Source: a virus (taxonomy: Duplodnaviria; Caudoviricetes). Taken from it: a stretch of 54,684 nucleotides of DNA. The stretch is from positions 1-54,684 of the IMG/VR virus record IMGVR_UViG_3300010399_000045, one strand, 5' to 3'. The notes below the pieces were generated by a model. That model had not been told where the DNA came from. It searched no databases and saw nothing but the letters and a program-made list of their open reading frames with translations. The translations under genes were made by a program, and so were the position numbers. Below are positions 1-15,920 of the stretch, one piece after another. Position 1 is the first letter of the stretch; every line of letters begins with the position of its first letter.

Positions 1-23
1 AACAGGTCCAGCGTGGCGTTGAC

Positions 24-218
24 GTGAAAGAAAAGACCCAGTTCGAGGTGTCGGCCGCCTGGATGAAGTCCTGCGGACTCGGCAGCGAGGCGAAGGTGTT
101 CCCAGTGCTGCGTACGCAGCACTACCCGAAGGCGGCGGACTGGTGTGCGGTGATGGTGATCGTGGAGCGCGACGGCCGCGAGTGGACGGTCGCGCAAGGA
201 CGCGGCAAGTTTATCTGA
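24..218 (+). CDS. Small hypothetical early protein (may start upstream of the window)
   Basis: ORF whose TGA abuts HH1. Confidence 0.6.
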   Translation: MKEKTQFEVSAAWMKSCGLGSEAKVFPVLRTQHYPKAADWCAVMVIVERDGREWTVAQGRGKFI

Positions 219-285
219 GTCGAAACCGGGCCAGGGTGCCCGGTCGCGCAGCACCCGGCCCGCTGCGCCTGATGATGACAGGCCG
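219..285 (+). ncRNA. Type II hammerhead ribozyme HH1 (predicted cleavage after C245)
   Basis: GTC-GAAA-[ccgggc/gcccgg]-TC-[gcgcagc/gctgcgc]-CTGATGA-T-GAC; loop I cggcc pairs with tail ggccg. Confidence 0.92.
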
Positions 286-300
286 ACAGGAGCAGCTGAT

Positions 301-438
301 ATGCTGCGCTTTTTGATTGTCGAGCTGTGCAAGGCGATCCTGACCGTCGTGGTTGCTGCCACCCTGGTCATGTCGTTCGGCGCGTGGCTCGTCGGAGATG
401 AACAGGAGAGACCATATGCCGCGCATGACCGACGCTGA
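301..438 (+). CDS. Small hydrophobic (single TM) hypothetical protein, 45 aa
   Basis: AGGAG RBS after HH1, ATG 301, MLRFLIVELCKAILTVVVAATLVMSFGAWLVG. Confidence 0.55.
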   Translation: MLRFLIVELCKAILTVVVAATLVMSFGAWLVGDEQERPYAAHDRR

Positions 439-626
439 CAAGCAGCGCGCGAAGTCCGAGATGGCGTGCATGTGCCTGACCGCGGTGCGCGACTACCTTG
501 GTTCAACCCGAGGTGCCCATCTCATGGGACCGGGGGCCAAGGCGGAACTCGGCGATCCACAAGACGATCATCGTCACCACCGCCGGTGGCACCTTCAAGG
601 TGGCGGTCAGCGAGTACCCCAACTGA
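416..626 (+). pseudogene. Small early gene with an apparent frameshift near 540-555
   Basis: AGGAG RBS and ATG 416; the +1 frame reads AIHKTIIVTTAGGTFKVAVSEYPN and stops at 624-626, just before HH2 like the other cassettes. Confidence 0.4.
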
Positions 627-630
627 AAGA

Positions 631-699
631 GCCGAAACGCCGCAGGGTGCGGCGTCGGTAGGGAGATGGGCCGACCCTGCCCTGATGATGGCAGGCCCA
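631..699 (+). ncRNA. Type II hammerhead ribozyme HH2 (cleavage after C656)
   Basis: GCC-GAAA-[cgccgca/tgcggcg]-TC-[ggtaggg/ccctgcc]-CTGATGA-T-GGC; loop tgggcc pairs with tail ggccca. Confidence 0.92.
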
Positions 700-715
700 A
701 ACCCGGAGAGAAAAA

Positions 716-916
716 ATGAAGGTCACGATCGATCCGATCGACGTCGACTCGATCACCGTCGAGATCAGTGGTGTGCCACTTCGCCTGTCGATCGACGTGA
801 ACGATTGCCTTCGCATCGAGTCCCAGAAGGACTACCTTGGGGCCGCGGTGCTGGCCAGCAACACGGTCCTGGTGTCGTACCTGTCGCCCCCTCCGAAGAA
901 AAAGGTGCGCAAATGA
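716..916 (+). CDS. Hypothetical protein
   Basis: GGAGAG RBS after HH2. Confidence 0.7.
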   Translation: MKVTIDPIDVDSITVEISGVPLRLSIDVNDCLRIESQKDYLGAAVLASNTVLVSYLSPPPKKKVRK

Positions 917-1362
917 TCACAAAACATCAGGTCAAGGCACTCGAGCGCGAGTTCCCGGAGGGCATCCCCGCATGGATGCTGACGGGCGGCCACAGCGCCG
1001 ACCAGATCCGCGAGCTCATGACGCTGCGGCGTGCCGGCCCCGCCAGATCGGCGGAAGGGCAGGCCCCGGAGCACAACTTCAGTGTCGAACCCGAGCAGTG
1101 GGACGACGCTGTCGTGATGAACGCCGCCTACTTTCAGATCGTCATCGGGCGAAACCCGGTGACGCGCGAGCGGATGCAGTGCAAGGATCTGCCCGAAGCT
1201 GTCAACCTCGCGCGGGTGCTGCTGCACACGGTCGCCGGCCAGAGGCCGATGATCTACGCTGTCACCGCGACCGGCCGCAGCACCATGCTGGTGCCGCAGC
1301 GCTGGGAGCACTACCTCAAACTTTGGGAGAAGCATCATGGGACTGCAAAAGTTTCGGGCTGA
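913..1362 (+). CDS. Hypothetical protein
   Basis: ATGA overlap with previous gene; start MITKHQVK. Confidence 0.7.
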   Translation: MITKHQVKALEREFPEGIPAWMLTGGHSADQIRELMTLRRAGPARSAEGQAPEHNFSVEPEQWDDAVVMNAAYFQIVIGRNPVTRERMQCKDLPEAVNLARVLLHTVAGQRPMIYAVTATGRSTMLVPQRWEHYLKLWEKHHGTAKVSG

Positions 1363-1615
1363 CAAGTTCGACAAGCAGTCGGACGGTGCCGAGATAGGCG
1401 TCTCCGAGTGGCTAGGCGGCCCGACGGTCTCGCTGGTCCGCAACTGCCGCCTCGCCAACCTGGAGGGTAACATGCGTCGCACGGTCTACGCGACAGGCGA
1501 TCCCGACACGTTCTTCTCCATCCCCGCGGTGACCGTGATCGCAGGGTGCCATGTCAACGGGCACCTGACGCTCGACGAGGATTGCCTGACGGTGTTTCGT
1601 CAGTGCTACTACTGA
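1337..1615 (+). CDS. Hypothetical protein
   Basis: GGAG RBS; stop immediately before HH3. Confidence 0.7.
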   Translation: MGLQKFRADKFDKQSDGAEIGVSEWLGGPTVSLVRNCRLANLEGNMRRTVYATGDPDTFFSIPAVTVIAGCHVNGHLTLDEDCLTVFRQCYY

Positions 1616-1617
1616 TC

Positions 1618-1682
1618 GCCGAAACGCCGCGGGTAGCGGCGTCGTGCCGACCTGGTCCACGGCACCTGATGATGGCAGACCA
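1618..1682 (+). ncRNA. Type II hammerhead ribozyme HH3 (cleavage after C1643)
   Basis: GCC-GAAA-[cgccgc/gcggcg]-TC-[gtgccg/cggcac]-CTGATGA-T-GGC; loop tggtc pairs with tail gacca. Confidence 0.92.
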
Positions 1683-1701
1683 AAGATTCAGGAGCAGCCC
1701 A

Positions 1702-1908
1702 ATGGGCAAGCGATACAAGATGCTGAACGGAGAAAAGATGCCGGAGTTTCGCGCGCGCTGCCAGCGGCTCGAGGAGGAGCGGCGGGCGCCACCGCCTCCG
1801 CCGAAGCCCAAGCGGGTGCGCAAGTCCCGTGCCAAGCCGAAGCCCACGCCGATCGCCGACAAGGTCGACGGTTTCGACCGCGACAACCTCGGGTTGTCCC
1901 CCGACTGA
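1702..1908 (+). CDS. Small basic Pro-rich hypothetical protein
   Basis: AGGAG RBS after HH3; stop before HH4. Confidence 0.7.
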   Translation: MGKRYKMLNGEKMPEFRARCQRLEEERRAPPPPPKPKRVRKSRAKPKPTPIADKVDGFDRDNLGLSPD

Positions 1909-1910
1909 TT

Positions 1911-1977
1911 GCCGAAACCCGGACCAGATGTCCGGGTCCGCGCGGCGGTGGTTCCCCGCGCGCTGAAGAGGCAAACC
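1911..1977 (+). ncRNA. Type II hammerhead ribozyme HH4, canonical core without the extra U (cleavage after C1938)
   Basis: GCC-GAAA-[cccggac/gtccggg]-TC-[cgcgcgg/ccgcgcg]-CTGAAGA-GGC; loop ggtt pairs with tail aacc. Confidence 0.93.
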
Positions 1978-1994
1978 CCCGGAGAGATCAAAAG

Positions 1995-2423
1995 ATGATC
2001 AAACATGATGACCACCCGTTCAAGCCGGGCGTGAAGGTCGCGGTGATCAGCGCCTACGGCACCAAGCGCACCTTCCGCGAGGACGAGGTCGCCAAGGTTC
2101 ACAAGACCGGGCGCTTCTCTCTGCAGCAGACGGGTGCGCAGTGGCGCGTGGAGCACGGCACGATCACATACGGCGGGCCGCGTGTCTGGTACGCCGAGCA
2201 ACCGGCCCAGTCTGGTCGCCGCTTCCGCGACCGGGTGCGAGTCCTCGACGAGTCATTCCTCGCCGAGATCGAGGTGGAGAAGGCTGAGGAGGCGCGGCGT
2301 ACGCGCGTGATCGAGGCGGTTCGGACAGCTGAGAAGTTTCTGGGTGGGCGATCGCAGGATCGCCTGACCGACTGGCAGCTCGAGGCACTCGAGACCTTCA
2401 ACAACCTGTGCAAGGAGCACTGA
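1995..2423 (+). CDS. Hypothetical protein
   Basis: GGAGAG RBS after HH4; start MIKHDDHPFKPG. Confidence 0.7.
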   Translation: MIKHDDHPFKPGVKVAVISAYGTKRTFREDEVAKVHKTGRFSLQQTGAQWRVEHGTITYGGPRVWYAEQPAQSGRRFRDRVRVLDESFLAEIEVEKAEEARRTRVIEAVRTAEKFLGGRSQDRLTDWQLEALETFNNLCKEH

Positions 2424-2428
2424 TACAC

Positions 2429-2686
2429 ATGAGCGAGATTATCACCCGAATTGTGGAGCTTGGAAACGCCATGAAAGTTGCCCGGGAACGAAGCGAACTC
2501 GACCGCCTCTACGAGAAGGCGCGTGCCTACGGCGAGATGGTTGTCGACTATGAAGACGACGCCGACCCGGACACGATCTACGACGCGTGGATCCGGGCAG
2601 CGCGCAAGGCGCTCGAGCATGAGCCCGACCGTGCGCTCGCCGAGCAGGCTGCTTCCAAGGTCGCGCAGGCGTTCGCGCAGCCCTGA
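2429..2686 (+). CDS. Hypothetical protein
   Basis: AGGAG RBS; stop before HH5. Confidence 0.65.
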   Translation: MSEIITRIVELGNAMKVARERSELDRLYEKARAYGEMVVDYEDDADPDTIYDAWIRAARKALEHEPDRALAEQAASKVAQAFAQP

Positions 2687-2693
2687 AAGAATC

Positions 2694-2758
2694 GCCGAAA
2701 CCGGGCACCTAGCCCGGTCGTGCGGGGGTGAGCTCCCCGCGCCTGATGATGGCAGCTC
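2694..2758 (+). ncRNA. Type II hammerhead ribozyme HH5 (cleavage after C2719)
   Basis: GCC-GAAA-[ccgggc/gcccgg]-TC-[gtgcgggg/ccccgcgc]-CTGATGA-T-GGC; loop gagct pairs with tail agctc. Confidence 0.92.
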
Positions 2759-2776
2759 TACCTACGGAGAGAACAG

Positions 2777-3766
2777 ATGACCGCAGCTGTAGAGACGATG
2801 GCCTGGACCGGTCAGACACCGTGGCACGGCGAGGGGTTCAAGGTCGACAACAACCTGACGCCCGAGCAGATGGTCGCCGCGGCGAAGATCAACTGGACCG
2901 TGTCCAAGCGCAAGGCCTTCTTCGAGCACGACGGTCAGATGGTACCGGCAAAGGATGAATACGCGCTGGTGCGCGACAGCGACGGCTTCAAGCTGTCGAT
3001 GGTCGGTGCCGGCTACAAACCCGTCCAGAACGCCGACGCCATGGACTTCTTCAAGCGCTTCGTCGACGCCGGTCACATGACGATGGAGACGGCCGGCGCC
3101 CTGTGGAATGGCCGCTACGTGTGGGGCCTCGCGCGGGTCGGCAAGGACTTCAAGCTGGGTAACAAGGACGAGGTGCGCGCGTATCTGCTCCTGTCGTCGC
3201 CGCACGTGCACGGCCGGTCGTTGAATATCCAGTTCACGACCGTGCGTGTCGTGTGCTGGAACACCCTCACGATGGCGCTCGGCGCCAAGCTGGACGGTGG
3301 CAAGGGCAAGGGGTTCCGTGTGCCACACTCGATCGCCTGGAACGATAAGGTGAAGGAGCAGGCGCAGGAGGCCTTCGGGCTCGCCGCGGAGCAGATGGTC
3401 CAATTCAAGGAGGCGGCGACAGTCCTCGTCAAGAAGAAGGCCGCGACGGCCGAGGTCGAGGAGTACTTCTGCGAGGTGATGCGGTACGATCCGAAGGAGA
3501 ACACCCGCAAGAAGAAGGCGGACGGGTCGGAGCGCGAGCCGAGGTCCCTGCCGAAGTTCCGCGCGGCGCTCGAGCACAGCCCCGGCCAGCAGCTGGCGCC
3601 GGCGCTCGGCACCTGGTGGGGCGCCCTGAACGCCGTCACCTTCGTGATCGATCACGAGATCGGTCGCGACCGCACGACGGCCCTGCGCAACGCCTGGATG
3701 GGTCACACCGCAGGCATCAAGCGGCGGGCCCTCGACCTGGCCCTGCAGAAGGCCGTGAAGTCCTGA
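2777..3766 (+). CDS. DUF932-family phage/plasmid protein
   Basis: ETMAW...PWHG, ETAGAL.NGR.VW, VRVVCWNTL and GTWWGALNAVT motifs typical of the family. Confidence 0.85.
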   Translation: MTAAVETMAWTGQTPWHGEGFKVDNNLTPEQMVAAAKINWTVSKRKAFFEHDGQMVPAKDEYALVRDSDGFKLSMVGAGYKPVQNADAMDFFKRFVDAGHMTMETAGALWNGRYVWGLARVGKDFKLGNKDEVRAYLLLSSPHVHGRSLNIQFTTVRVVCWNTLTMALGAKLDGGKGKGFRVPHSIAWNDKVKEQAQEAFGLAAEQMVQFKEAATVLVKKKAATAEVEEYFCEVMRYDPKENTRKKKADGSEREPRSLPKFRAALEHSPGQQLAPALGTWWGALNAVTFVIDHEIGRDRTTALRNAWMGHTAGIKRRALDLALQKAVKS

Positions 3767-3769
3767 ATT

Positions 3770-3842
3770 GCCGAAACCTGCGGGGCCCGACAGCCCCCAG
3801 GTCGTGCCGATCTGGTCCACGGCACCTGATGATGGCAGACCA
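3770..3842 (+). ncRNA. Type II hammerhead ribozyme HH6 (cleavage after C3803)
   Basis: GCC-GAAA-[cctg-c-ggggc/gcccc-cagg]-TC-[gtgccg/cggcac]-CTGATGA-T-GGC; loop tggtc pairs with tail gacca. Confidence 0.92.
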
Positions 3843-3867
3843 AAAAAGTGGAGAGGAAAAGCAGGTC

Positions 3868-4179
3868 ATGGCTGAGATCCACATCACCCTGAACGAGGAT
3901 TCGTACTACAAGTGCCTGACTGACGTCGGTCTTCTAGATCTGATGGCCGTTGCGCACGTCGACCGCGTTGGTGACAACTATCACGTGCGTTTGACCCACA
4001 AGGATCTGGAACAGCTCCTGAAAGGTGAAAAGATCAGCCCAGACGAGTACGCGCACGAATTAGCCTGCCAGCTTGTTCGTCAAAGCCGGCCCAAGAAGAC
4101 GAAAAGTTACCTACTTAGTGCGGCCGTTGTCGTGTGGGCCACGGCGAGCGTACTCCTATTGTTCTTGGCGTATCAATAA
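3868..4179 (+). CDS. Hypothetical protein with C-terminal TM segment
   Basis: ORF between HH6 and HH7; hydrophobic C-terminus. Confidence 0.6.
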   Translation: MAEIHITLNEDSYYKCLTDVGLLDLMAVAHVDRVGDNYHVRLTHKDLEQLLKGEKISPDEYAHELACQLVRQSRPKKTKSYLLSAAVVVWATASVLLLFLAYQ

Positions 4180-4182
4180 ATG

Positions 4183-4255
4183 GCCGAAACCCAGGTCTTC
4201 CAGTGTACCTGGGTCGTCGCGGGCTGGGTACCCGCGGCCTGATGATGGCAACCCA
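4183..4255 (+). ncRNA. Type II hammerhead ribozyme HH7 (cleavage after C4215)
   Basis: GCC-GAAA-[cccaggt/acctggg]-TC-[gtcgcggg/cccgcggc]-CTGATGA-T-GGC; loop tgggt pairs with tail accca. Confidence 0.92.
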
Positions 4256-4271
4256 AACCCGGAGAGAAACG

Positions 4272-5177
4272 ATGTTAAAGAGCTACGAGCAGCGCGCGCA
4301 GGAGTACCTGGGTCGCGACCTCGCGGGCCTCACCGCGTACCTGCAGGGCTGCAGGGTCGACATGCACGAGCCCGACGAGCAGGGTGTCAAGGCAAGTGTA
4401 GTCGGCAGTCACCTGGACAACTCGTTCGGCAATACCGGCACCAACGACGAGCTGGTTGTGCTCCTCGACCGCGACGGCAAGCCACAGGAACGTTTTAACC
4501 TGGCTACACTGATCGCGCTGGCACGGCTCGCCGACCTCGGGTCCTTGATCCCGCGCGAGTATCAGCTGACGCCCCTGCAGATCACGATGCTCCTGCACTA
4601 CCACGCGATCGTTACACCCTACGGCCGCGGCGAGCCGGAGCACGCCAACTCGCCGGCCGTGCGGCAGCAGCGGGAAGCGATGGTGACGATGGGCCTGCTG
4701 TACGCGACCGACGAGTTCCCGTCAGGCTACAGGACGACCGAGGCCGGGCGCCGGCACGTCGAGCGCCTGACGCAGATGAGCCCGGGGCGCGCGTCTGACA
4801 GCACCCCGCTCGACGAGCTGTTCGATGAGCGTGAGCGGCAGCAGAACAACATGATCTTCGCTGCCGCGAATATCAGGGCGCACGCGGAGGCGTTCCGTGA
4901 GGTGACCGACCGCATCGTGAACATCCTCATGACCGGCGGCGGTGGGCACGACGAGGTCATCGACGAGACGGAGGTCATGAACACCGACACCTACGTCGAC
5001 CATGTGCTCATGACCGAGGCGGCTGGCAAGATCGACGAGAAACGCCGGCGTGTCTCCAAGCTCGAGCAGTTGCTGTGTCAGATCGTCGACGCCTACTTTG
5101 GGAAACAGCCTATTCGCGATGCCATCGCTGAGGCACGTGAACTCGTCAAGGACGTGCCACGGGAGGTCAGGTCGTGA
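4272..5177 (+). CDS. Hypothetical, probably multidomain, early protein
   Basis: GGAGAG RBS after HH7; 301 aa ORF. Confidence 0.7.
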   Translation: MLKSYEQRAQEYLGRDLAGLTAYLQGCRVDMHEPDEQGVKASVVGSHLDNSFGNTGTNDELVVLLDRDGKPQERFNLATLIALARLADLGSLIPREYQLTPLQITMLLHYHAIVTPYGRGEPEHANSPAVRQQREAMVTMGLLYATDEFPSGYRTTEAGRRHVERLTQMSPGRASDSTPLDELFDERERQQNNMIFAAANIRAHAEAFREVTDRIVNILMTGGGGHDEVIDETEVMNTDTYVDHVLMTEAAGKIDEKRRRVSKLEQLLCQIVDAYFGKQPIRDAIAEARELVKDVPREVRS

Positions 5178-5373
5178 AGGACGACCTGGTCTGCATCAGG
5201 CCCAGCGCTGGAGGAAACCTCACCTGGGCCAGCAGGGCTGCGTGCATACGCAGCCTGCGCGAGTTCAGCCCGGCCCCGCGGGCTGCGCACCGTGTCGTCC
5301 GGTTCTGGTCGACCCGGTATGGTAAATGGCGGTATTGTCGAGTCCTAGACCCGACTCGGTGCCGCAAACAGAA

Positions 5374-5440
5374 GTCGAAACCGGGCACCTAGCCCGGTCG
5401 TGCGGGGGTGAGCTCCCCGCGCCTGATGATGGCAGCTCAC
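5374..5440 (+). ncRNA. Type II hammerhead ribozyme HH8 (cleavage after C5399)
   Basis: Near-identical to HH5; GTC/GGC stem II; loop gtgagct complementary to tail agctcac. Confidence 0.92.
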
Positions 5441-5464
5441 AGAACATGGAACCCGGAGAGAACC

Positions 5465-6256
5465 ATGCAGGATAACAACAAGATCATCGACAAGATCCGC
5501 AAGGTGCTGGCCCTCACGTCCTCGCCGAACGAGGGTGAGGCGGCGAGCGCGGCAGCACGCGTGCAGGAGATGCTCGCCAAGTACAACCTTCAGCTCGGCG
5601 ACGTCATCGAGAAGAAGGCGGACGAGGCGATCCAGATCTACAAGGGCATGCGCACGCCTTCCCGGCCCTGGTGCCGGCAGATCGCGGTAGCGACCGCCAG
5701 TCTGTACTTCTGCCGCTACTACTACACGTTCGTCAAGGAGGGTGCCGCGCGCAAGTGCGGCTACATCCGCTACGACGAGCACTATTTCGTCGGCCGTCCG
5801 CACAACGCGGCGGTCGCCATGATGATGTTTGAGTACCTGACCAAGACTGTCGAGCGGTTGGCGGTCGCGGGCAGCAAGTCGGTGCCGGCCACCGAGCGGA
5901 CCTCCTACATGACCTCGTTCCGCACAGCCTGCGCCCTGCGCCTGAACGCCCGCATCTACGCCCGGCTCACCGAGACCATCAAGTCGGCGACCCGCAGCAC
6001 CGAGGTCAATGGTAGCGGCGGTGCCCCCAGCAGCAACCTCCCCGCGCTCGCCAGCCTGTACCAGCAGGCGAAGCAGGAACTGCAGGAGTTCATGGATGAG
6101 AACTTCAGCAAGAACAGTATCAAAGAGAAGGTGACCAAGGTCGTCTACAACCACAGCAAAGGTACCCAGGACGGCGACAAGGCCGGTTCCTCGATCGGCC
6201 TCGACCAACAGGTCGGTGCGGGTGGCAAGCCCTCCGCACTGATCGGGAGGACCTGA
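5465..6256 (+). CDS. DUF2786-domain protein
   Basis: KIIDKIRKVLALTSSPNEGEAASAAARVQEMLAKYNL signature. Confidence 0.85.
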   Translation: MQDNNKIIDKIRKVLALTSSPNEGEAASAAARVQEMLAKYNLQLGDVIEKKADEAIQIYKGMRTPSRPWCRQIAVATASLYFCRYYYTFVKEGAARKCGYIRYDEHYFVGRPHNAAVAMMMFEYLTKTVERLAVAGSKSVPATERTSYMTSFRTACALRLNARIYARLTETIKSATRSTEVNGSGGAPSSNLPALASLYQQAKQELQEFMDENFSKNSIKEKVTKVVYNHSKGTQDGDKAGSSIGLDQQVGAGGKPSALIGRT

Positions 6257-6258
6257 TC

Positions 6259-6462
6259 ATGGCTCGAATGATCGTCAGCGAGCGCGAGCGCCTGCTTCAC
6301 GGCGCCGTCCACGACCTCAGCAGCGCATTGCAGCACGTGCTGCGCGCGATCGACCTGTCGCAGGCGAACGGCGACGCGAGTGTCACCGTTCGCCAACCCC
6401 TGATCGAGGCACTCGCGTGCATCGACACAAGCCGCATCGAACTGGAAGGATTCATCGGATAA
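6259..6462 (+). CDS. Hypothetical protein
   Basis: GGAGG RBS; stop before HH9. Confidence 0.65.
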   Translation: MARMIVSERERLLHGAVHDLSSALQHVLRAIDLSQANGDASVTVRQPLIEALACIDTSRIELEGFIG

Positions 6463-6463
6463 A

Positions 6464-6531
6464 GCCGAAACGGCGCGCGTCGTCGCGCCGTCGTGCCGAT
6501 CTGGTCCACGGCACCTGATGATGGCAAACCA
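6464..6531 (+). ncRNA. Type II hammerhead ribozyme HH9 (cleavage after C6492)
   Basis: GCC-GAAA-[cggcgcg/cgcgccg]-TC-[gtgccg/cggcac]-CTGATGA-T-GGC; loop tggt pairs with tail acca. Confidence 0.92.
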
Positions 6532-6549
6532 AACCCGGAGAGAAACCAC

Positions 6550-7011
6550 ATGACCAAAGGTCGCAAGGTCAACCCGAGATATGCAAGCAAGAAGCGGACA
6601 CCCCGCCCGACGAGGGAAGAGTTGAGCCGGCGTCTGCAGGATCTCAGTACAGAACTGCGCATCGTGGAATCTGTGCGCGCCAGTGCCGAGGAGCGTGCAG
6701 GCCGATACTGGGAGGAGATCACGAAGCTGAAGCAGTACCTGGAGGAGGCCCAGGCAGGATCACGACATGCCTATGAGCAGCGCGACGATACGATACGCGA
6801 GCGCAACGAGGCCGAGGCTCGCATGTGGCGCCAGGCAGGAGCGCTGCAGCTGATCTGGGCCGAGTTCGCGCCGTACAACATGCTCGGCGCTGACCCCAAT
6901 CGCCTGAAGAACTCGCTGCGCGTGATCCACGGCATCGCCGAGCAGGCACTCGGCAGACAGAGCCTGGGTTGCGGCCTTTTCGAGGCCGCGCAACTGCGGA
7001 AGACCAACTAG
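6550..7011 (+). CDS. Coiled-coil hypothetical protein
   Basis: GGAGAG RBS after HH9; TAG overlaps the first base of HH10. Confidence 0.7.
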   Translation: MTKGRKVNPRYASKKRTPRPTREELSRRLQDLSTELRIVESVRASAEERAGRYWEEITKLKQYLEEAQAGSRHAYEQRDDTIRERNEAEARMWRQAGALQLIWAEFAPYNMLGADPNRLKNSLRVIHGIAEQALGRQSLGCGLFEAAQLRKTN

Positions 7012-7077
7012 CCGAAACCGGGCGCCCTTCGCCCGGTCGCGCGGACCTGACCCGCCGCGCCTGATGATGGCAGGTCG
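7011..7077 (+). ncRNA. Type II hammerhead ribozyme HH10 (cleavage after C7038)
   Basis: GCC-GAAA-[ccgggcg/cgcccgg]-TC-[gcgcgg/ccgcgc]-CTGATGA-T-GGC; loop gacc pairs with tail ggtc. Confidence 0.92.
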
Positions 7078-7103
7078 AAACAAAATTCCCCGGAGAGAAA
7101 GAT

Positions 7104-7289
7104 ATGATCACCGAAAACAAGCTGAAACGCGTACCGCGCATCTACCGCTGGATTGAGGGCTACGCCACTCTCATGGTCGGTGGTGGTGGTGTCATGATGC
7201 TGCTCCAGCAGCCCCTTTGGGCGATCGCCTTCTTCACTGGCGCGATCGCTCTAAAGCTGGACCTGCGCGACACAAGGGAGGGTTACTGA
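7104..7289 (+). CDS. Small membrane protein
   Basis: RBS after HH10; two hydrophobic stretches. Confidence 0.65.
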   Translation: MITENKLKRVPRIYRWIEGYATLMVGGGGVMMLLQQPLWAIAFFTGAIALKLDLRDTREGY

Positions 7290-7519
7290 TGGTACGGGAA
7301 AAGGAGGTCGTAAATCTCGAGTGCCTCGACCGCGACGACCTGTCGGATTACATCCGCAAGCACCAGGACGATCCGGCCTACAGCTACCAGGTGTCGATCG
7401 CGCAAACCATCCGTGAGGCCCAGGCGGCGCAGTTGACAGGGCAGATCTCCCGCGCCCTCACCCTCGAGAAGCATGCGGACGCGCTCTACAAGCTCCTGCC
7501 GCAGGAGGAGCGCTGGTGA
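7289..7519 (+). CDS. Hypothetical protein
   Basis: TGATG coupling, GGAGG RBS; stop before HH11. Confidence 0.65.
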   Translation: MVREKEVVNLECLDRDDLSDYIRKHQDDPAYSYQVSIAQTIREAQAAQLTGQISRALTLEKHADALYKLLPQEERW

Positions 7520-7522
7520 GAA

Positions 7523-7590
7523 GTCGAAACGGCGCGATGACGCGCCGTCGTGCAGCACCCGGCCCCGCTGCGCCTGATGATGACAGGGCC
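7523..7590 (+). ncRNA. Type II hammerhead ribozyme HH11 (cleavage after C7549)
   Basis: GTC-GAAA-[cggcgcg/cgcgccg]-TC-[gtgcagc/gctgcgc]-CTGATGA-T-GAC; loop ggccc pairs with tail gggcc. Confidence 0.92.
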
Positions 7591-7604
7591 CCCGGAGAGA
7601 GAAG

Positions 7605-7964
7605 ATGAAGAAGGCATCAGTTGACCCACGCGAAGCGCGCCTGCCGGTTTGGGCACGCGACGAGCTCGACACGCTACGCCGCAAGGTCACGGATCTGCAG
7701 AAGGCGCTCACAACTATCACCGAGTGCAACAAACCGGCCCAGTTCTGGGTCGACCTCGGGCCATCGAGCAACACCCCCGGTCGCTTCTACCTGCAACAGC
7801 CGCGGATGCACTTCGGCGTGGACCCGATGGACGACGGTTTCGGTACCCAGCACCTGCAGCTGATCCATCGCGAGGAAGGTGGTCAGCACTACCTCGAGAT
7901 CAACGGCAAGCAGGCCCTGTACGTGCGTCCGTATGCTAGCAACGTCCTGCGGATCATGGTGTGA
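7605..7964 (+). CDS. Hypothetical protein
   Basis: GGAGAG RBS after HH11. Confidence 0.7.
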   Translation: MKKASVDPREARLPVWARDELDTLRRKVTDLQKALTTITECNKPAQFWVDLGPSSNTPGRFYLQQPRMHFGVDPMDDGFGTQHLQLIHREEGGQHYLEINGKQALYVRPYASNVLRIMV

Positions 7965-8320
7965 GCACCATGACCAAGTTCAAGCAGGGCAAGGAAGCTG
8001 CGGACCGGGTGCGCCAGCACCACGCGGACGAAGAGCAGTACGAACTGCCCGAACCCGACGTGACCCCCGCTACCCACCCCGACCATCACACGGTCGGCAA
8101 GGAGTTCATGGGTCACGACTACCGGCGACACGGGTGGCCCGCGGTGCGCTGGTTCTGCGAGTCACATGACCGATGCGGCTACTGGATGTACGCGACCGAC
8201 GGGTCCGGTCATTGGACCAATGTGTCGGAGCGCGCAATCGGCCGCAGCTTCCACGAGATCGAGCGCTTGCCGTCCGGTCGCCTGATCTGTGCGGGCTGGC
8301 GGGTTCCAACTTATACTTGA
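7961..8320 (+). CDS. Hypothetical protein
   Basis: GTGA overlap with previous gene. Confidence 0.6.
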   Translation: MSTMTKFKQGKEAADRVRQHHADEEQYELPEPDVTPATHPDHHTVGKEFMGHDYRRHGWPAVRWFCESHDRCGYWMYATDGSGHWTNVSERAIGRSFHEIERLPSGRLICAGWRVPTYT

Positions 8321-8331
8321 AAGGAGGAGAC

Positions 8332-9171
8332 ATGCGTGCGCAGCGAAGGACCGCCGAACCTCGATGGGGTGTCGTCGGAGCTGCGATTACGTTGGCTGCC
8401 GCTGCCGGTTACTTCAGTGTAACCGGCATGGCAGCACTCTATGCGGGGTCGGCGATCGGGGTCAGCGTAATCTTTGCGGCGATCGAGATCGGTAAATTGG
8501 CAACCGCCGCTTCCCTGCATCGCTACTGGCCCGGTCTGTCGTGGGTCGTTCGGATCGGACTGATGGTGGCCCTGCTGGCCGCCATGCTCCTGACCTCGGC
8601 TGGTGTGTACGGCTACCTTCTGCGGGCCTACCTGTCGCGCGCACCAGCACTCACCTCAGCGCAGCAGGTGGTAGCCTCACAAGAACGCCTGATCGTCGAC
8701 CTGGAAGCGCGCCTGCGTGCGGCGCCTGCCAAGATCAACCTGCCTTCTCGCATCTCGTCCCGCGCGATGACGATCGCTGCACAGGCGCAGGCAGCAGAAC
8801 AAAAGAGACAGGCGACAGATAGAATGCGCCTGACGACCGAGTACCAAGCTGCTCTACAACGGCTGGCGGAATTGCGCACAACAGCGGCCGAGGTGGAGGT
8901 GGAACTTGGACCCGCAAGAACACTCGCCACGTGGCTCAACCTGGGGCAGTCCGGTGCTGTAGAGGTGCTGACCTTGATCTCGGTGTTGTGCCTCGATCCG
9001 CTAGCCGTCCTGCTGATGATGGCCGGCAGTGGGCGCGCACAAAACCTTCCTATCAGGCGGGTCAAGAAGAAACGAAAAAGTCTCAAGAAGAAGGTGCGTA
9101 AAAGCTTACCGCGAGTAACACCAACCTACACAACACCAGTAGCGCGTTTAACAAGCAGCAAGAAGGGGTAA
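8332..9171 (+). CDS. Membrane protein (3 TM + coiled coil + TM, basic tail)
   Basis: AGGAGG RBS; hydrophobic helices; DPLAVLLMMA. Confidence 0.7.
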   Translation: MRAQRRTAEPRWGVVGAAITLAAAAGYFSVTGMAALYAGSAIGVSVIFAAIEIGKLATAASLHRYWPGLSWVVRIGLMVALLAAMLLTSAGVYGYLLRAYLSRAPALTSAQQVVASQERLIVDLEARLRAAPAKINLPSRISSRAMTIAAQAQAAEQKRQATDRMRLTTEYQAALQRLAELRTTAAEVEVELGPARTLATWLNLGQSGAVEVLTLISVLCLDPLAVLLMMAGSGRAQNLPIRRVKKKRKSLKKKVRKSLPRVTPTYTTPVARLTSSKKG

Positions 9172-9176
9172 AACCT

Positions 9177-9356
9177 ATGGGTATCGAAGAGATCCGCGCC
9201 GCACTTGCGCGGCGCGTCATGGAGCGGGGTCGACAGGCGGCTGTTGAGTCCCGAGTGCTGGACGTGGTCCGGTGCCTCCAAGAACTGCTCGGCCTGCTGC
9301 CCGAGGACGAGGTCGAGCAGTTCAGACAGGAGATCCAGACATGCGGCGAGTTATGA
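9177..9356 (+). CDS. Small hypothetical protein
   Basis: ATG 9177 to TGA 9356 fills the gap between genes. Confidence 0.5.
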   Translation: MGIEEIRAALARRVMERGRQAAVESRVLDVVRCLQELLGLLPEDEVEQFRQEIQTCGEL

Positions 9357-9503
9357 TCTTTACAGCATCGGTGGTACCGGCGCTGTGCTTCACCGCGTTC
9401 ATGGCGGTGGCGCACTACTGCCAGGTCAAGCAAGCGCTCGGTCTGCCGACCACTTTCTGCACCAGGCGGTGATGCCTGGTATGATCGGAGAGGAGTTTAG
9501 CAT

Positions 9504-9944
9504 ATGAAACGATACACGGTACACGACTACGTGGTGCGAGCACTTGCTGGATCTGTGTCACGCGGATACGTGACGACCGATCCGCTGGTGGTCGCTGAGA
9601 TCGAGAAGTTCTACAAGTACGCGCGCGAGATGTACGGCTACTCGCGTAGCGGTGCCGACAGGTGGCTCTCGTGTGCGAGCAGTGAGCGGTTAGACGCTGT
9701 GGTCGACCAGATCAGGGATGCCGATAAGCTCCTTCGCTTCAAGGCGGCCTGGGATCGGCTGAGCTCGGAGCAGCGGCAGCAGGTCGTCAATTGGGTCGAG
9801 GTGTTGTCAGCGACAGGTCGTCAGGTCGATCAGGGACCCGCCAGCCCGCAGACGCCTCAGGTCACCTGTGACCGCTGCGGCATCCTGAAGCGGCCCGCGA
9901 ATGAGGCGGATCACAACTGCGGAAGCTGCGGGGAACTGATATGA
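9504..9944 (+). CDS. Hypothetical protein with C-terminal CxxC...CxxC Zn ribbon
   Basis: AGGAG RBS; CDRC...CGSC. Confidence 0.65.
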   Translation: MKRYTVHDYVVRALAGSVSRGYVTTDPLVVAEIEKFYKYAREMYGYSRSGADRWLSCASSERLDAVVDQIRDADKLLRFKAAWDRLSSEQRQQVVNWVEVLSATGRQVDQGPASPQTPQVTCDRCGILKRPANEADHNCGSCGELI

Positions 9945-10171
9945 CAGATCAGGAACCCAAACGTGTCGACGTGCAGGTTATGGAGCTGCTGCCCGGTCTG
10001 ATGAACCGCGTCCTGCGGCTCATCGAATGGGGTGGGTACAGTAAACCGAAGACGCTGTCCTTGCCGAACTACACCGTCAGGCATCTGAGCCTGAAGACCG
10101 GAAGCATCTTCTGGCAACAGAGGCGTTCATTCGGTCACAAGGAACCGGCCAACTGGTACAAGGTGCTCTGA
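9941..10171 (+). CDS. Hypothetical protein
   Basis: ATGA overlap, coupled to primase. Confidence 0.55.
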   Translation: MTDQEPKRVDVQVMELLPGLMNRVLRLIEWGGYSKPKTLSLPNYTVRHLSLKTGSIFWQQRRSFGHKEPANWYKVL

Positions 10172-11172
10172 TGGACTGGGAGCACACCCTGTCGCAGCAC
10201 GGGGTGCCCTACGCGACCCGCGGGCCTAACGTGGCCCGCGGTGCGATAGCTGTAAAATGTCCGTTCTGCGGGCCGGCAGATCCGTCCGAGCACCTGGTCA
10301 TCGACCTCGGTGGCAAGGGTTGGCTCTGCCGGCGCTCGCGTGAGCACAGGGGCCGCTCCGCGACACGCCTTCTGCAGGCGCTCCTGGGCTGCACGCGCGA
10401 GCAGGCGCAGCGCCTATCAGGCGAGCGCAGCATCCCCGACGATATGCTGTCGATCGTCCGCGCGCGCCTGGGCCTCGACCTGCCTGCGGCTGTGCAGATG
10501 CGGAAACCACCGAACATGCCTGCCGGGTTCAAGCGATTCACCGGACTGCCCTCGTCGCGCCCGTTTGTCCACTATCTAGCGGGGCGGGGTTTTGACGACC
10601 GGCAGATCCGCGACATGATTGACAGATACGACCTGCGGTACTGTGTGCGGGGTTCGTTCGGCGGCCGGGTGATCTTCCCAATCAAGAGAGACGGCACACT
10701 GGTGTCGTGGACCGGCAGATCTATCAGCGCCGGGGCGCGCCTGCGGTACAAGACGCTGCCCGAGGACCCGGACGCTGCACGCGACCTCGACTGCGATCCG
10801 GCGGTCGCGCCCATATCGCACTACCTGCTGTGGGAAGACGAGCTGCGCGCGACCGAGGCCGACACCGTATCGATATCTGAAGGTCCTTTTGACGCACTAC
10901 GTGTAGCGCTCCTGGGCCGCGAGCTCGGCGTTTGTGGCACCTGTGTGTTCACCGCCGAACCGTCCGACGAGCAGGTCGGACTACTTCACGAGATCTTGCC
11001 TCGATTCAAACGGCGACTGCTCCTGCTGGATCAGAGTACTGTTAACGCGACGATGCGGATCAGCGCCGCACTCGCCGGGTTGTCAGTTGAACCTGTGTAC
11101 CTGCCAGCAGGGTTGAAGGACCCAGGTGAGATTCGCAGTACAAAAGACCTGGCCCAAGTCCTTTCTATATAA
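10171..11172 (+). CDS. DNA primase (Zn finger + TOPRIM)
   Basis: CPFC...H...C; RVIFPI...SWTGRSI; ISEGPFDA; KDPGE. Confidence 0.88.
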   Translation: MDWEHTLSQHGVPYATRGPNVARGAIAVKCPFCGPADPSEHLVIDLGGKGWLCRRSREHRGRSATRLLQALLGCTREQAQRLSGERSIPDDMLSIVRARLGLDLPAAVQMRKPPNMPAGFKRFTGLPSSRPFVHYLAGRGFDDRQIRDMIDRYDLRYCVRGSFGGRVIFPIKRDGTLVSWTGRSISAGARLRYKTLPEDPDAARDLDCDPAVAPISHYLLWEDELRATEADTVSISEGPFDALRVALLGRELGVCGTCVFTAEPSDEQVGLLHEILPRFKRRLLLLDQSTVNATMRISAALAGLSVEPVYLPAGLKDPGEIRSTKDLAQVLSI

Positions 11173-11185
11173 CCGACGATTTTTC

Positions 11186-11214
11186 TTGAGGTAAAGTCCG
11201 CTTTACCCTACCTT
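11186..11214 (+). promoter_or_regulatory. Putative sigma70-type promoter with palindromic spacer
   Basis: TTGAGG-17 bp-TACCTT; overlapping inverted repeat GGTAAAG-tccg-CTTTACC (11190-11207). Confidence 0.45.
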
Positions 11215-11338
11215 GACTCTATGCCGAGTTGCGTGGCATCTCTCCGCGGTGCTGGGGACCCCCGTCGCAATAGTCCCCGTTTACTCTTTTACTGAACAGG
11301 GTTCGGAGAGCTTGGAGTCAAAAGGGAGGCAGGGCCCG

Positions 11339-11893
11339 ATGATAGGCAAAGCACCGATGGCACCCGGTATGGATCAGGGTGCTCTGGGATGGATGATCAG
11401 GACAGCGAGAAAGAACCACTGGCGGGTTTCCGCCTACATCGATCTGGACGACCTGATGCAGGACGGGTACTTTTACTGGTTACGGATCGGCAGCAGGTAC
11501 CCAGATGTCAAGGACCAGCCGCTCCGCATGCGCTTGTTTCAAACCGCATTCAACAATCACCTTACAAATCTGGCGACTCGACGCACCCGCCAACCGAACT
11601 TCCTCCCCCTGATGGTGCAGCAGCTCGAAGAAGAAGCCGGCCGAACGCCTGAGCACGAGCTGATCGAACTCCCCCCAACGACCATCGCCTACTCGGATCA
11701 TGGTATCTGTCGCAACCTAGTACGCCGCGCGATTGAAGCGCTCGGCAGCGACGCTGGTGCCGCCGCATGGCGTGCTCCGTACGACCGGCGAGCCGACGGC
11801 ACACGCGAGACTACCAACGAGCGGCTGTGCCGCATCGTGGGCGTGGACCCCACCCAGATCAACATGCTTGCAGTACTCCGCGCGGCGCTCTGA
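11339..11893 (+). CDS. Sigma-factor-like protein (region 2-like)
   Basis: IDLDDLMQDGYFYW...F.TAFNNHL resembles sigma70/ECF region 2; GGGAGG RBS. Confidence 0.55.
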   Translation: MIGKAPMAPGMDQGALGWMIRTARKNHWRVSAYIDLDDLMQDGYFYWLRIGSRYPDVKDQPLRMRLFQTAFNNHLTNLATRRTRQPNFLPLMVQQLEEEAGRTPEHELIELPPTTIAYSDHGICRNLVRRAIEALGSDAGAAAWRAPYDRRADGTRETTNERLCRIVGVDPTQINMLAVLRAAL

Positions 11894-11946
11894 TACGCCG
11901 CGGTATGTACCTGGTACAAGGTCTTCTACCTGGAGAGACAAACAAG

Positions 11947-12411
11947 ATGCCAGTTGAGATCACCCGGCGCGTCGAGTTCGACGCCGGTCATCGCATTCCG
12001 AACCATGCGTCAAAATGCCGCAACATCCACGGTCACCGCTACCGCCTGGAGGCGACCGTGTCAGGGGCCGTCCTAGAAGCCCGCGGCGAGTCGGACGACG
12101 GGATGATCGTCGACTTCGGCCTCCTCAAGCAGGTCATGAGCGAGTGTGTCGCCGACAGGTGGGACCACGCCTTCCTCTGCTGGGAGGGTGACCACTCGAT
12201 GTGCTGGGTTCTGGAGCACGCGCGCGACGAGCTCGGCGATCACCGCACGGTCATCATGCCCGATGTGCCGACCGCCGAGAACTTGGCACAGGCGGCCTTC
12301 CGCCTGATCGACGGGGGGTTGCAAACGGCAGGCGCACCGTTCGAGCTCGTGCGGGTGCGCCTGTACGAGACCCCGAACTGCTGGGCCGACGCGACGAGGG
12401 GGGAGACCTGA
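11947..12411 (+). CDS. queD: 6-carboxy-5,6,7,8-tetrahydropterin synthase
   Basis: FDAGHRI...KCRNIHGHRY, DFG.LK, WDHAFL, PTAENLA, RLYETP. Confidence 0.93.
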   Translation: MPVEITRRVEFDAGHRIPNHASKCRNIHGHRYRLEATVSGAVLEARGESDDGMIVDFGLLKQVMSECVADRWDHAFLCWEGDHSMCWVLEHARDELGDHRTVIMPDVPTAENLAQAAFRLIDGGLQTAGAPFELVRVRLYETPNCWADATRGET

Positions 12412-12412
12412 G

Positions 12413-13204
12413 ATGCCGCACACCGCGGAGGAGCTCGCGAAGGTCGAGGTCACAGGGCCGGTGCTGTTCGCCGACGGCGCACGCGGCATGGCCCGACAGG
12501 AGTTTCAGGCGGTCGGCATCGAGCGCCTGCGCTACGTGTGGTCGCGGAAGGACCGCGACGACAAGGGCCGCACCTATTGGGCGGTCGATGGCACCGAGGT
12601 CGCGGATCTTGCGCATGCCGCCGAGATGCTCAACCGCGATCCAGACCCCGAGTCGCCGGCCGAGCAGTGGAAGCGCTGGCGCGCGGAGCAGGACGCCTCG
12701 CCGAAGCTCGCGGGTCGTGCTCGGCGCGCGCGCAACGTGGCCGAGTGCGCCGCGCACGTGGCCCCGGTCGGCCAGTTCAGCATGTGGCGCGAGCGGGTGG
12801 ATCATGCGTGGCACACCGGCATCAATCACTACGCCGACGACCTGCGCCATCAACCGCACGACCCCGGAACCTCGGTTCATCCGTACTGGTTGTACGACGT
12901 CAAGTACATGACCGGCGAGATGTCGCGGCTGCAGCACCTATGGGCCGCCGATCGCAAAGAGGACCAGGAACTGATCTGCGCGCTCGGTACCCGCTGCCGG
13001 GACTGCCCGATCCTACAGCAGATAGAGCTGTCACTCATAGAAGCACGGATCAAGAAGCCCTTCCCGCAACCCGACATCGAGGACGGGGACATCGACCTCG
13101 TCAAGACCATGACGTGCATCGGACACGTGCTGTCCCGGGGCGGCCCGCACAGCCTGCTGCACGACGGTTGCCTTATCACCAACAAGCGCGACAGGGAGGA
13201 TTGA
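12413..13204 (+). CDS. Hypothetical protein, Cys/His-containing
   Basis: Long ORF coupled to queD; CALGTRCRDC. Confidence 0.65.
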   Translation: MPHTAEELAKVEVTGPVLFADGARGMARQEFQAVGIERLRYVWSRKDRDDKGRTYWAVDGTEVADLAHAAEMLNRDPDPESPAEQWKRWRAEQDASPKLAGRARRARNVAECAAHVAPVGQFSMWRERVDHAWHTGINHYADDLRHQPHDPGTSVHPYWLYDVKYMTGEMSRLQHLWAADRKEDQELICALGTRCRDCPILQQIELSLIEARIKKPFPQPDIEDGDIDLVKTMTCIGHVLSRGGPHSLLHDGCLITNKRDRED

Positions 13205-13289
13205 ACCCAAAGCCAAAAACGGGATGGACCCGGGCGGTCCCGGAGAACTAGCGGCCCGGTCGGAAAAACCTTCGCAAAGGGTAGTACTT

Positions 13290-13916
13290 ATGACAAGCAT
13301 CTTGCAGGAACTGTCGAAAGCGGCCAGCATGAAGGCGCCGAAAGGCGGGCCGGACGAAGCTTGGTTGCGCTCGCTGGTCGAGACCATCAACGCAAAGGCC
13401 GACACCGACCAGGACTTCTGGGACAAGCTGTCCGAACCAGCACAGCAGTACGTCAACGACGGACAGCTCGCGCTGAACGAGGGCAAGCCCATCCCATCGA
13501 TCGACGACAACGGCCCGGCACCCAACGGTAACGGTGCCGATCATCAGGAGCAGGACGACATGACCGACAAGACCACCAAGAAGGCGAAACCCGCTGGTGG
13601 CGGTGGAGCGAAGAAGGCAGCGGCCGCGAAACCCGCGGGCGATCCCAAGAAGAAGGCAGCGGCACCGGCCAAAAAGGCAGCGGCAGCGAAGCCCGCGGCC
13701 GACAAGGCGGCGGGTCCCAAGAAGGTATCCGGGATCAAGGTTGCGATCAAGATGGCGATCATCAAGCAGCCCGGCATCTCGCTGGAGGACCTGATCGGCA
13801 AGCTCGAGAAAGATGGCGAGAAGGTTTCGCGGTACACGACGGCCTCCATCAGGTCGGAGTTTCGCCACAGCCTGCGCGTCCTCAATCAGGCCGGGGTCAC
13901 CAAGATCGATCTCTGA
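13290..13916 (+). CDS. Protein with Lys/Ala-rich histone H1-like repeats
   Basis: AKKAAAAKPA repeats between N- and C-terminal globular parts. Confidence 0.7.
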   Translation: MTSILQELSKAASMKAPKGGPDEAWLRSLVETINAKADTDQDFWDKLSEPAQQYVNDGQLALNEGKPIPSIDDNGPAPNGNGADHQEQDDMTDKTTKKAKPAGGGGAKKAAAAKPAGDPKKKAAAPAKKAAAAKPAADKAAGPKKVSGIKVAIKMAIIKQPGISLEDLIGKLEKDGEKVSRYTTASIRSEFRHSLRVLNQAGVTKIDL

Positions 13917-13946
13917 TCTGCGGCTTCCCCCGCAGGGGTTTGTTTC

Positions 13947-13988
13947 AAAAAGAGCGCGGGTCGGTTGAGATCCCAGGCCCGCGCTTTT
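13947..13988 (+). terminator. Putative intrinsic terminator hairpin
   Basis: agcgcgggtc...ggcccgcgct followed by TTT and preceded by an A run. Confidence 0.4.
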
Positions 13989-14021
13989 GACCTTCTCGGA
14001 ACTAAAAAAGGAGCACGCCGT

Positions 14022-14765: not shown

Positions 14766-14820
14766 GGTGCCGTTTTTCCGCGACCTGGCAGATCGCCGGG
14801 AGGAGATTTCGCGATCCCCT

Positions 14821-15911: not shown

Positions 15912-15920
15912 TCAAAACCG

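Follow-up and report, generated by a model that had tools for sequence, protein, structure and literature searches.

The window analysed here, 54,684 bp in length, is a linear virus record from IMG/VR (IMGVR_UViG_3300010399_000045), which has an estimated completeness of about 54% and carries the replication, tail and lysis genes of a tailed phage. Near its left end, eleven type II hammerhead ribozymes (HH1 to HH11) lie within positions 218–7592, all on the + strand, and none is found elsewhere in the 54.7 kb. The array contains 17 called open reading frames (ORFs), mostly without a family match, and every ribozyme is placed between a stop codon and the next Shine-Dalgarno (SD) sequence and start codon (Table 1). 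The best reading of this arrangement, and in our judgement a probable one, is that one long transcript is processed by the ribozymes into protected linear mRNAs. An initial annotation of the same DNA had proposed that the RNAs between the ribozymes are either protected linear molecules or circular mRNAs.

Detection and Structure of the Ribozymes

A pattern for the hammerhead core occurs at 11 sites on the + strand and at none on the − strand. With 41.9–48.8 bits, seven copies reach the gathering score of the Rfam model RF02276 (Hammerhead_II), which is 37 bits. Two further copies score just under it (35.0 bits for HH6 and 34.4 bits for HH10), and HH1 (at 218) and HH11 (at 7522) are absent from the Rfam matches at E ≤ 1. 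When two of the copies are used to build a covariance model (R1) and this is run on both strands of the whole window with filters off, it returns exactly 11 matches with E values from 6e-34 to 6e-7; the next match has E = 0.069. The cut is predicted to fall after GUC in 11/11 copies, and the positions on which the initial annotation relied (246, 2720, 3803 and 7549) coincide exactly with these predicted cut sites.

Each ribozyme unit of about 70 nt forms a three-stem junction in which stems I and III are capped and stem II is open, which is the type II architecture. The core reads CUGAUGA in ten copies and CUGAAGA in HH4, while GAAA and the GUC cut site are present in all 11. One extra U, which Rfam aligns as an insertion, stands between A9 and stem II in every core except that of HH4. 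Stem II consists of 3 bp, which are GCC/GGC in eight copies, GUC/GAC in two and GUC/GGC in one.

In a structural alignment of the 11 copies, 98.9% of 187 cells are standard pairs, and both sides of the pair change at 12 of 18 pairs. The observed covariation score is reached by 0 of 500 shuffles, controls in which the partner strand is slid pair in 30–51% of cells, and compensatory changes occur in all three stems. The alignment was fitted to the model and so favours the structure; the slid controls and the double changes are nevertheless clear.

Loop I can also form a pseudoknot with the 3′ tail, which begins one nucleotide after stem II. Counted over the first 8 nucleotides of the tail, this pairing reaches at least 4 bp in all 11 copies and at least 5 bp in eight, and at least six different sequences are used for it. 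Loops and tails taken from different copies reach at least 4 bp in 38% of 102 combinations. The canonical pseudoknot pairing of HH7 and HH9 was assigned by eye.

Predicted Fragments, Leaders and Gene Packing

The 11 cuts would yield ten predicted fragments (F1 to F10) of 295–1184 nt, each with one to three ORFs. The 5′ end of a fragment would be nucleotide 1 of stem I, which is paired and leaves no overhang, followed by CUGAUGA, the 3′ strand of stem II and the pseudoknot tail. The 3′ end would consist of the 5′ strand of stem II, GAAA, the stem III hairpin and a single C. The initial annotation had described fragments that open with the stem I hairpin and pseudoknot and close with the stem III hairpin, and this layout is seen in all ten. 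The stem I hairpins have 6–9 bp and folding energies of −8.0 to −16.0 kcal/mol, and the stem III hairpins have energies of −12.7 to −17.6 kcal/mol.

Table 1. Hammerhead ribozymes, predicted cut sites and predicted inter-ribozyme fragments of the array
Feature	Positions	Strand	Predicted cut or length	Structural features or ORFs	Model scores
HH1	218..287	+	245/246	stem II GUC/GAC; pseudoknot CGGCC/GGCCG	R1 49.5 bits, E 5e-15; not in Rfam at E ≤ 1
HH2	630..700	+	656/657	pseudoknot UGGGCC/GGCCCA	Rfam 47.2 bits
HH3	1617..1684	+	1643/1644	pseudoknot UGGUC/GACCA	Rfam 47.3 bits
HH4	1910..1980	+	1938/1939	core CUGAAGA without extra U; pseudoknot GGUU/AACC	Rfam 41.9 bits
HH5	2693..2761	+	2719/2720	near-identical to HH8	Rfam 48.8 bits
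HH6	3769..3844	+	3803/3804	long stem III	Rfam 35.0 bits (below gathering score 37); R1 E 9e-11
HH7	4182..4257	+	4215/4216	pseudoknot UGGGU/ACCCA (by eye)	Rfam 45.1 bits
HH8	5373..5441	+	5399/5400	stem II GUC/GGC (G-U wobble)	Rfam 48.2 bits
HH9	6463..6533	+	6492/6493	pseudoknot UGGU/ACCA (4 bp, by eye)	Rfam 41.9 bits
HH10	7010..7079	+	7038/7039	upstream TAG stop overlaps first stem II base	Rfam 34.4 bits (below gathering score); R1 E 1e-18
HH11 (last copy)	7522..7592	+	7549/7550	stem II GUC/GAC	R1 41.4 bits, E 4e-12; not in Rfam
F1	246..656	+	411 nt	ORF 301–438; apparently frameshifted ORF 416–626	
F2	657..1643	+	987 nt	ORFs 716–916, 913–1362, 1337–1615	
F3	1644..1938	+	295 nt	ORF 1702–1908	
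F4	1939..2719	+	781 nt	ORFs 1995–2423, 2429–2686	
F5	2720..3803	+	1084 nt	ORF 2777–3766 (DUF932 / phrog_1221)	
F6	3804..4215	+	412 nt	ORF 3868–4179	
F7	4216..5399	+	1184 nt	ORFs 4272–5177, 5174–5392 (stop inside HH8 stem III loop)	
F8	5400..6492	+	1093 nt	ORFs 5465–6256 (DUF2786 + DUF7168, phrog_421), 6259–6462	
F9	6493..7038	+	546 nt	ORF 6550–7011	
F10	7039..7549	+	511 nt	ORFs 7104–7289, 7289–7519	

The distance from cut to start codon is 55–65 nt in 10/10 fragments, with a strong SD directly after the leader structure. The structure and placement expected of a leader-standardising element of the RiboJ kind are therefore found in all ten. Seven of the 11 tails (those of HH2, 4, 7, 8, 9, 10 and 11) have CCCGGAGAG in common, which stands after the pseudoknot tail and just before the start codon. 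The genes past the last ribozyme (7970 onward) are without this motif and look translationally coupled.

On the upstream side, the distance from the stop codon to the stem II strand is −19 to +7 nt (from 7 nt before to 19 nt inside the ribozyme) in nine of the ten fragments as called, and F1 falls in the same range if its second ORF ends at 626. In this ORF, the frame of ATG 416 has a high third-position GC as far as about 555, from where the frame ending with TGA at 624–626 has it. The frame change could be an assembly indel or a real shift. An uninterrupted frame (416–661) would cross the HH2 cut and lose its stop codon. At the end of F7, the TAG of the second ORF gives a coding/ribozyme overlap of 19 nt, and a short inverted repeat, CGAGTC...GACTCG, lies just upstream of that TAG at 5338–5362.

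Hammerheads in Other Viral Contigs

In viral contigs, at least 117 stretches fit a pattern that combines two core motifs, with 80 loci among the matches listed. After two overlapping loci (L059 and L063) were dropped, the survey set consisted of the window and 78 non-overlapping loci, or 79 sources. The loci span only about 6 kb on each side, and the counts per source are therefore lower bounds. A second covariance model (R2), built from the 11 copies, gives 130 matches at E ≤ 0.001 over these sources. One copy is present in 55 sources, two in 16, three in four and four in one; two loci hold seven (L008) and nine (L032), compared to eleven in the window. Whole records can hold more. The 77-kb virus from which L008 derives (G001) has 12 type II hammerheads on its − strand at 57856–71303, within 13.4 kb, so the array in the window is not the largest. 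A complete 217-kb phage with terminal repeats (G004) has eight copies, some with a GC content of only 0.34–0.41. Because L008 and L032 differ in the GC content of their arrays (45% and 66%, respectively) and whole records hold 12 and eight copies, large arrays recur in unrelated phages.

The packing seen in the window is repeated across this family. Of 118 scorable hits, 92 have an upstream stop codon that ends no more than 2 nt from the start of the model, and a start codon preceded by an SD lies 10–30 nt past the model end in 92 of 106. The structures of the ribozymes, their placement and their conservation are what the sequences show. The ORFs that follow them are mostly unannotated, with 80 of 93 lacking a Pfam match at E ≤ 1e-4. 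The remainder include three Mu-type transposases, helix-turn-helix (HTH) proteins, two LPD25 proteins and MazF-like, AcrIC5-domain, ankyrin and Bro-N proteins. The Mu-type transposases are at L022, L011 and L028, and the AcrIC5-domain protein and the MazF-like protein (MazF/PemK-like) are at L033:1328–1681 and L030:3296–3775. This mix of genes agrees with published descriptions in which bacterial self-cleaving ribozymes are associated with genes of Mu-like phages and with each other.

The same published clustering, for which those descriptions give no reason, can be taken to suggest selfish or neutral passengers, that is, small mobile or duplicating elements that have spread into intergenic gaps without benefit to the phage. 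It is consistent with such spread that the nearest relative of 9/11 copies is another copy in the same genome. However, the exact order of stop codon, ribozyme, SD and start codon is repeated in the GC 45% and GC 66% arrays and across the 79 sources, and all copies have the orientation of the genes. Since the packing is repeated and the orientation matches, the ribozymes appear to be integrated into gene expression, which leaves the passenger explanation very improbable.

Similarity among Copies and Re-assortment of Ribozyme Halves

The copies of the array resemble one another unevenly along their length. The 3′ halves (stem I and the pseudoknot tail) of HH3, HH6 and HH9 are 95–98% identical, that of HH6 being 98% identical to both others, while similarity among their 5′ halves does not exceed 67%. 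HH2 and HH3 have a common 5′ half (85%), HH1 and HH11 have a common 3′ half (86%), and HH5 and HH8 are 93% identical overall. At L008, five copies have one common stem III and differing stem I sequences. This re-assortment of halves suggests that recombination or gene conversion has taken place among the copies, with breakpoints that would lie near the cut site.

It could be supposed from this that the repeats of about 70 bp act mainly at the DNA level, as boundaries for the gain, loss and shuffling of early gene cassettes, and that cleavage is secondary. The flanked genes do vary and mostly lack annotation, and the homologues of the DUF932 protein found in other viral contigs have no hammerhead beside them (three loci with 39–44% identity; Rfam at E ≤ 1 and R2 at E ≤ 0.001). 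Plain repeats, however, would need neither an intact core with GUC in 11/11 copies, nor compensatory changes in three stems, nor a pseudoknot specific to each copy. We regard a mainly recombinational role as unlikely; it is compatible with a role in processing and does not replace it.

Probable Processing into Linear mRNAs

Hammerhead cleavage produces a 5′-OH end and a 2′,3′-cyclic phosphate end. RNase E and RNase J prefer accessible 5′-monophosphate ends, and 3′ exonucleases and poly(A) polymerase require a free 3′-OH tail. These properties, taken with the anatomy of the array, suggest the following course of events. The 7.4-kb block would be one co-oriented early or accessory transcription unit of the phage. 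As RNA polymerase passes a gap between genes, the ribozyme of about 70 nt would fold by means of stems I and III, the 3-bp stem II and the loop I/tail pseudoknot, and would cut after GUC. The two products would then separate, since in a type II hammerhead nothing but the 3-bp stem II links them.

The outcome would be a set of at least ten linear mRNAs, each with between one and three genes. At the 5′ end, such an mRNA would carry a 5′-OH on a base-paired nucleotide, followed by stem I, the pseudoknot and a strong GGAGAG SD. At the 3′ end, it would carry the GC-rich stem III hairpin and a one-nucleotide tail with the 2′,3′-cyclic phosphate. Such ends would offer little access to RNase E or J acting from the 5′ end, to 3′ exonucleases or to poly(A) polymerase. 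The phage would probably benefit in that each cassette would have the same leader and its own lifetime, independent of its neighbours and of host processing enzymes.

Processing of this kind is favoured by the confinement of the array to one strand, the covariation, the invariant GUC, the pairing of each pseudoknot with itself, the regular spacing and the stable hairpins at the fragment ends. It is also favoured, if only slightly, by the level of promoters and terminators, which is that expected by chance. Sigma-70-like promoters show no excess in 1–12000 (2 found against 1.7 expected, with a sigma-70-type consensus that may not be that of the host), nor do intrinsic terminators in the same region (9 found against 7.8 expected). 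Further support comes from the family-wide placement, from the other arrays and from the published prophage clusters that cleave.

A number of points weigh against this reading. Rfam places four of the 11 copies below its gathering score or misses them, ten cores have the extra U, and the activity of the ribozymes is predicted from their sequence. The folding of the leaders gives no sign of an insulation that frees the SD, with a predicted unpaired probability of SD and start codon of 0.63 in the cleaved RNA and 0.60 when 200 nt of upstream RNA are kept. It is likewise a prediction that the block is transcribed as a unit, that the ribozymes cut in vivo and that the messages are stabilised thereby. 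The term "early" reflects solely the position upstream of the replication genes. Finally, a 5′-OH end can promote decay by RNase J, for which glmS and RNase J1 provide a precedent, so the sign of any effect on stability would depend on the host and on whether RNase J is present there.

That precedent also bears on the idea of a timed shut-off or a regulated cleavage, by which the cuts would destabilise the early messages or be modulated themselves, either limiting potentially toxic takeover genes or setting stoichiometry. The routes to decay could be a 5′-OH-dependent RNase J or the loss of a protective triphosphate, and the modulators could be Mg2+ or ribosomes terminating 1–7 nt upstream. 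Because the stop codons abut or overlap the ribozyme, in the window as in most of the family, a terminating ribosome would cover stems II and III. Regulated cleavage has also been suggested for some phage hammerheads by Perreault et al. (PMC3088659). However, an entry site for decay would need the reverse of what the two new ends offer, each being a flush and stable hairpin, and no ligand-binding or switch element is evident in the units. Shut-off or regulation is accordingly judged an improbable main role.

The Idea of Circular mRNAs

The other half of the initial annotation, that the fragments circularise, can be addressed with the same data. After two cuts, host RtcB or the reverse hammerhead reaction would join the ends of one fragment and give translatable circles that resist exonucleases. 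The ribozyme that closes such a circle would be chimeric, consisting of the 3′ half of one hammerhead and the 5′ half of the next. The claim that joining a fragment's own ends rebuilds a hammerhead is borne out in its geometry, with 3/3 stem II pairs in 9/10 fragments and 2/3 in F1. The 5′-OH and 2′,3′-cyclic phosphate chemistry suits RtcB according to published accounts, and circles were also considered by Perreault et al. 2011 (PMC3088659).

The window itself offers a single informative case with a mismatch, and it is broken: in the F1 chimera, GCC from HH2 stands opposite GAC from HH1. In the survey of 79 sources, 41 of the 51 chimeras between neighbours have a fully paired stem II, compared to a fraction of 0.75 for random pairings, while stem II within a single ribozyme is paired in 125 of 130. 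In 28 neighbour pairs the stem II sequences differ, and ten of these chimeras are broken. Because the neighbour chimeras are near the random rate and self stem II is nearly always paired, selection is visible on the cis ribozyme only. Moreover, since 55 of the 79 sources hold one hammerhead within about 6 kb, and a single ribozyme cannot bound a circle, a role conserved in the family cannot need two cuts.

Folding gives little further guidance. Linear minimum free energy (MFE) folds bring the ends together through the chimeric stem II in F5, F6 and F9 (3/10), which is regarded as weak support for circles, and circular MFE folds do so in 0/10, which is weak evidence as well for long, GC-rich, translated mRNAs. 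The terminal hairpins are present in only some of the global MFE folds of the fragments, a result judged uninformative. No more than 3 bp would hold the ends of a fragment together, as the ends form neither a rod nor a longer duplex, and a sealed circle would presumably rebuild an active ribozyme and be cut again. The profiles RtcB, RNA_ligase and 2_5_RNA_ligase2 match nothing in the window. The record represents only some 54% of the genome, however, and RtcB could come from the host.

In the literature, the hammerheads of known circular RNAs are of type III or type I according to PMC13725137. Circular products of prophage clusters went undetected according to PMC3088659, with data not shown there. 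No report of phage hammerhead circles or of RtcB involvement was found in the open-access and bioRxiv papers searched. Circular mRNAs are therefore considered very unlikely. The initial annotation is thus partly supported, in the part that concerns protected or insulated linear mRNAs, to which the flush hairpins, the 55–65 nt leaders and the SD sequences fit, while indirect tests lend no support to the part that concerns circles.

A bolder version of the same idea would treat the inter-ribozyme units as cassettes at the RNA level, a meaningful share of which is sealed into translatable circles or re-joined in new orders. We give it only a slight chance. If it were true, early messages would be immune to exonucleases, and such joining would have left its trace in the DNA as the re-assorted halves of the ribozymes.

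Genomic Context

ORFs, which were picked by third-position GC, run on the + strand up to about 38.4 kb. A DUF7239 gene comes next after the last ribozyme. Farther downstream are a primase, a cluster of QueD, QueC, GTP cyclohydrolase and transglycosylase-like genes, a sliding clamp, a DNA polymerase, a clamp loader and a single-stranded DNA-binding protein (SSB), as well as a UvsX-like recombinase, RusA, thymidylate synthase and SbcCD-like genes. The endolysin, tail fibre and baseplate genes are on the − strand. The array thus sits where an early or accessory block would be expected, and its timing is suggested by this position. Because the left end of the contig cuts into an ORF whose last position, 218, immediately precedes the first ribozyme, the array may extend past this end.

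Relatives of this phage are distant. A megablast search of 1–8000 against phages gave no match, no close relative was found in viral contigs through the primase protein, and a 37-nt ribozyme half had 0 matches in viral contigs. An exact-match scan of metagenome contigs with a 40-nt stretch of the window also gave 0 matches, and a search for RNA sequencing runs containing the region 200–7700 listed none. The nearest cultured phages are an Edwardsiella phage for the DNA polymerase (34%) and Burkholderia phages for baseplate J (48%).

The cluster at 11767–17030 comprises QueD-like, QueC-like, GTP cyclohydrolase and tRNA-ribosyltransferase-like genes, a set typical of 7-deazaguanine DNA modification in phages. 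At 31075–31677 there is a weak match to the head domain of poly(A) polymerases and CCA-adding enzymes (PF01743; 22.3 bits compared to a cut-off of 23), and the gene could encode a nucleotidyltransferase whose substrates are RNA 3′ ends.

Comparison with Known Systems

The closest precedent is the work of Perreault et al. 2011 (PMC3088659). There, type II hammerheads in which loop I forms a pseudoknot with the 3′ tail are found in clusters that flank prophage genes, triple arrangements cleave in vitro (the Agrobacterium one also in E. coli), and it is proposed that long phage transcripts are processed into gene-length mRNAs. The authors also state that cleavage and ligation could yield spliced or circular products. 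The array in the window resembles these clusters in type, in pseudoknot, in gene orientation and in flanking single genes or short blocks of phage DNA. It differs in size, as triple arrangements in constructs of roughly 2 kb were tested there, compared to 11 copies in 7.4 kb here, and maybe more given that the contig is cut on the left. It also differs in its surroundings, which are of a lytic replication type and not those of an adjacent integrase, and in the extra U after A9 in 10/11 copies. Clustered phage hammerheads and the idea of circles were thus already published in 2011, and the window array is a new large case. Cleavage in Desulfovibrio of three type II hammerheads near phage-like genes is described in a cyPhyRNA-seq study.

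Engineered and natural processing systems are similar in other respects. RiboJ is likewise a self-cleaving hammerhead between upstream RNA and the SD that takes away the upstream context and leaves a structured leader with a 5′-OH. It derives from a type III satellite hammerhead and has an added hairpin, whereas the copies in the window are natural, of type II and eleven in number, and would also set the 3′ end of the preceding message; their leaders show no effect on SD exposure in folding. The processing of T7 transcripts by RNase III also cuts a long early transcript in the gaps between genes and gives mRNAs that keep a 3′ hairpin. In T7 the cutter is a host protein that leaves 5′-phosphate and 3′-OH ends, whereas in the window it is encoded in the RNA, with predicted 5′-OH and 2′,3′-cyclic phosphate ends. 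The promoter-stem-loop cassettes (PeSLs) of T4-type phages, through which modules are shuffled, are also short, repeated regulatory elements between small early genes with signs of recombination among copies, but they consist of promoters and terminator-like hairpins and are not ribozymes.

Viroid-like RNAs and retrozymes (PMC7761336, PMC6765202 and PMC13725137) resemble the array in that two cuts free a unit with ends of the kind used by tRNA ligase or RtcB, and in that joining restores the ribozyme. They are described there as carrying type III or type I hammerheads and as mostly non-coding RNAs of a few hundred nucleotides, in which rods bring the ends together. The units in the window, in contrast, are ordinary mRNAs with stop codons, bounded by type II hammerheads with an open 3-bp stem II, and they are known from DNA alone.

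Implications

Natural type II hammerheads, with their orthogonal pseudoknots, may be able to serve in synthetic operons as insulators that do not interfere with one another. What phages gain from self-cleaving ribozymes dispersed among their genes is a question that has stood since 2011, and reviews of 2019 and 2023 still call the purpose of phage hammerheads unknown. With eleven active-looking copies, exact predicted cuts and ten defined fragments, the array is a compact test bed, which could show whether the processing of phage transcripts by hammerheads has a stabilising, insulating or shut-off effect, and whether any circles are formed.

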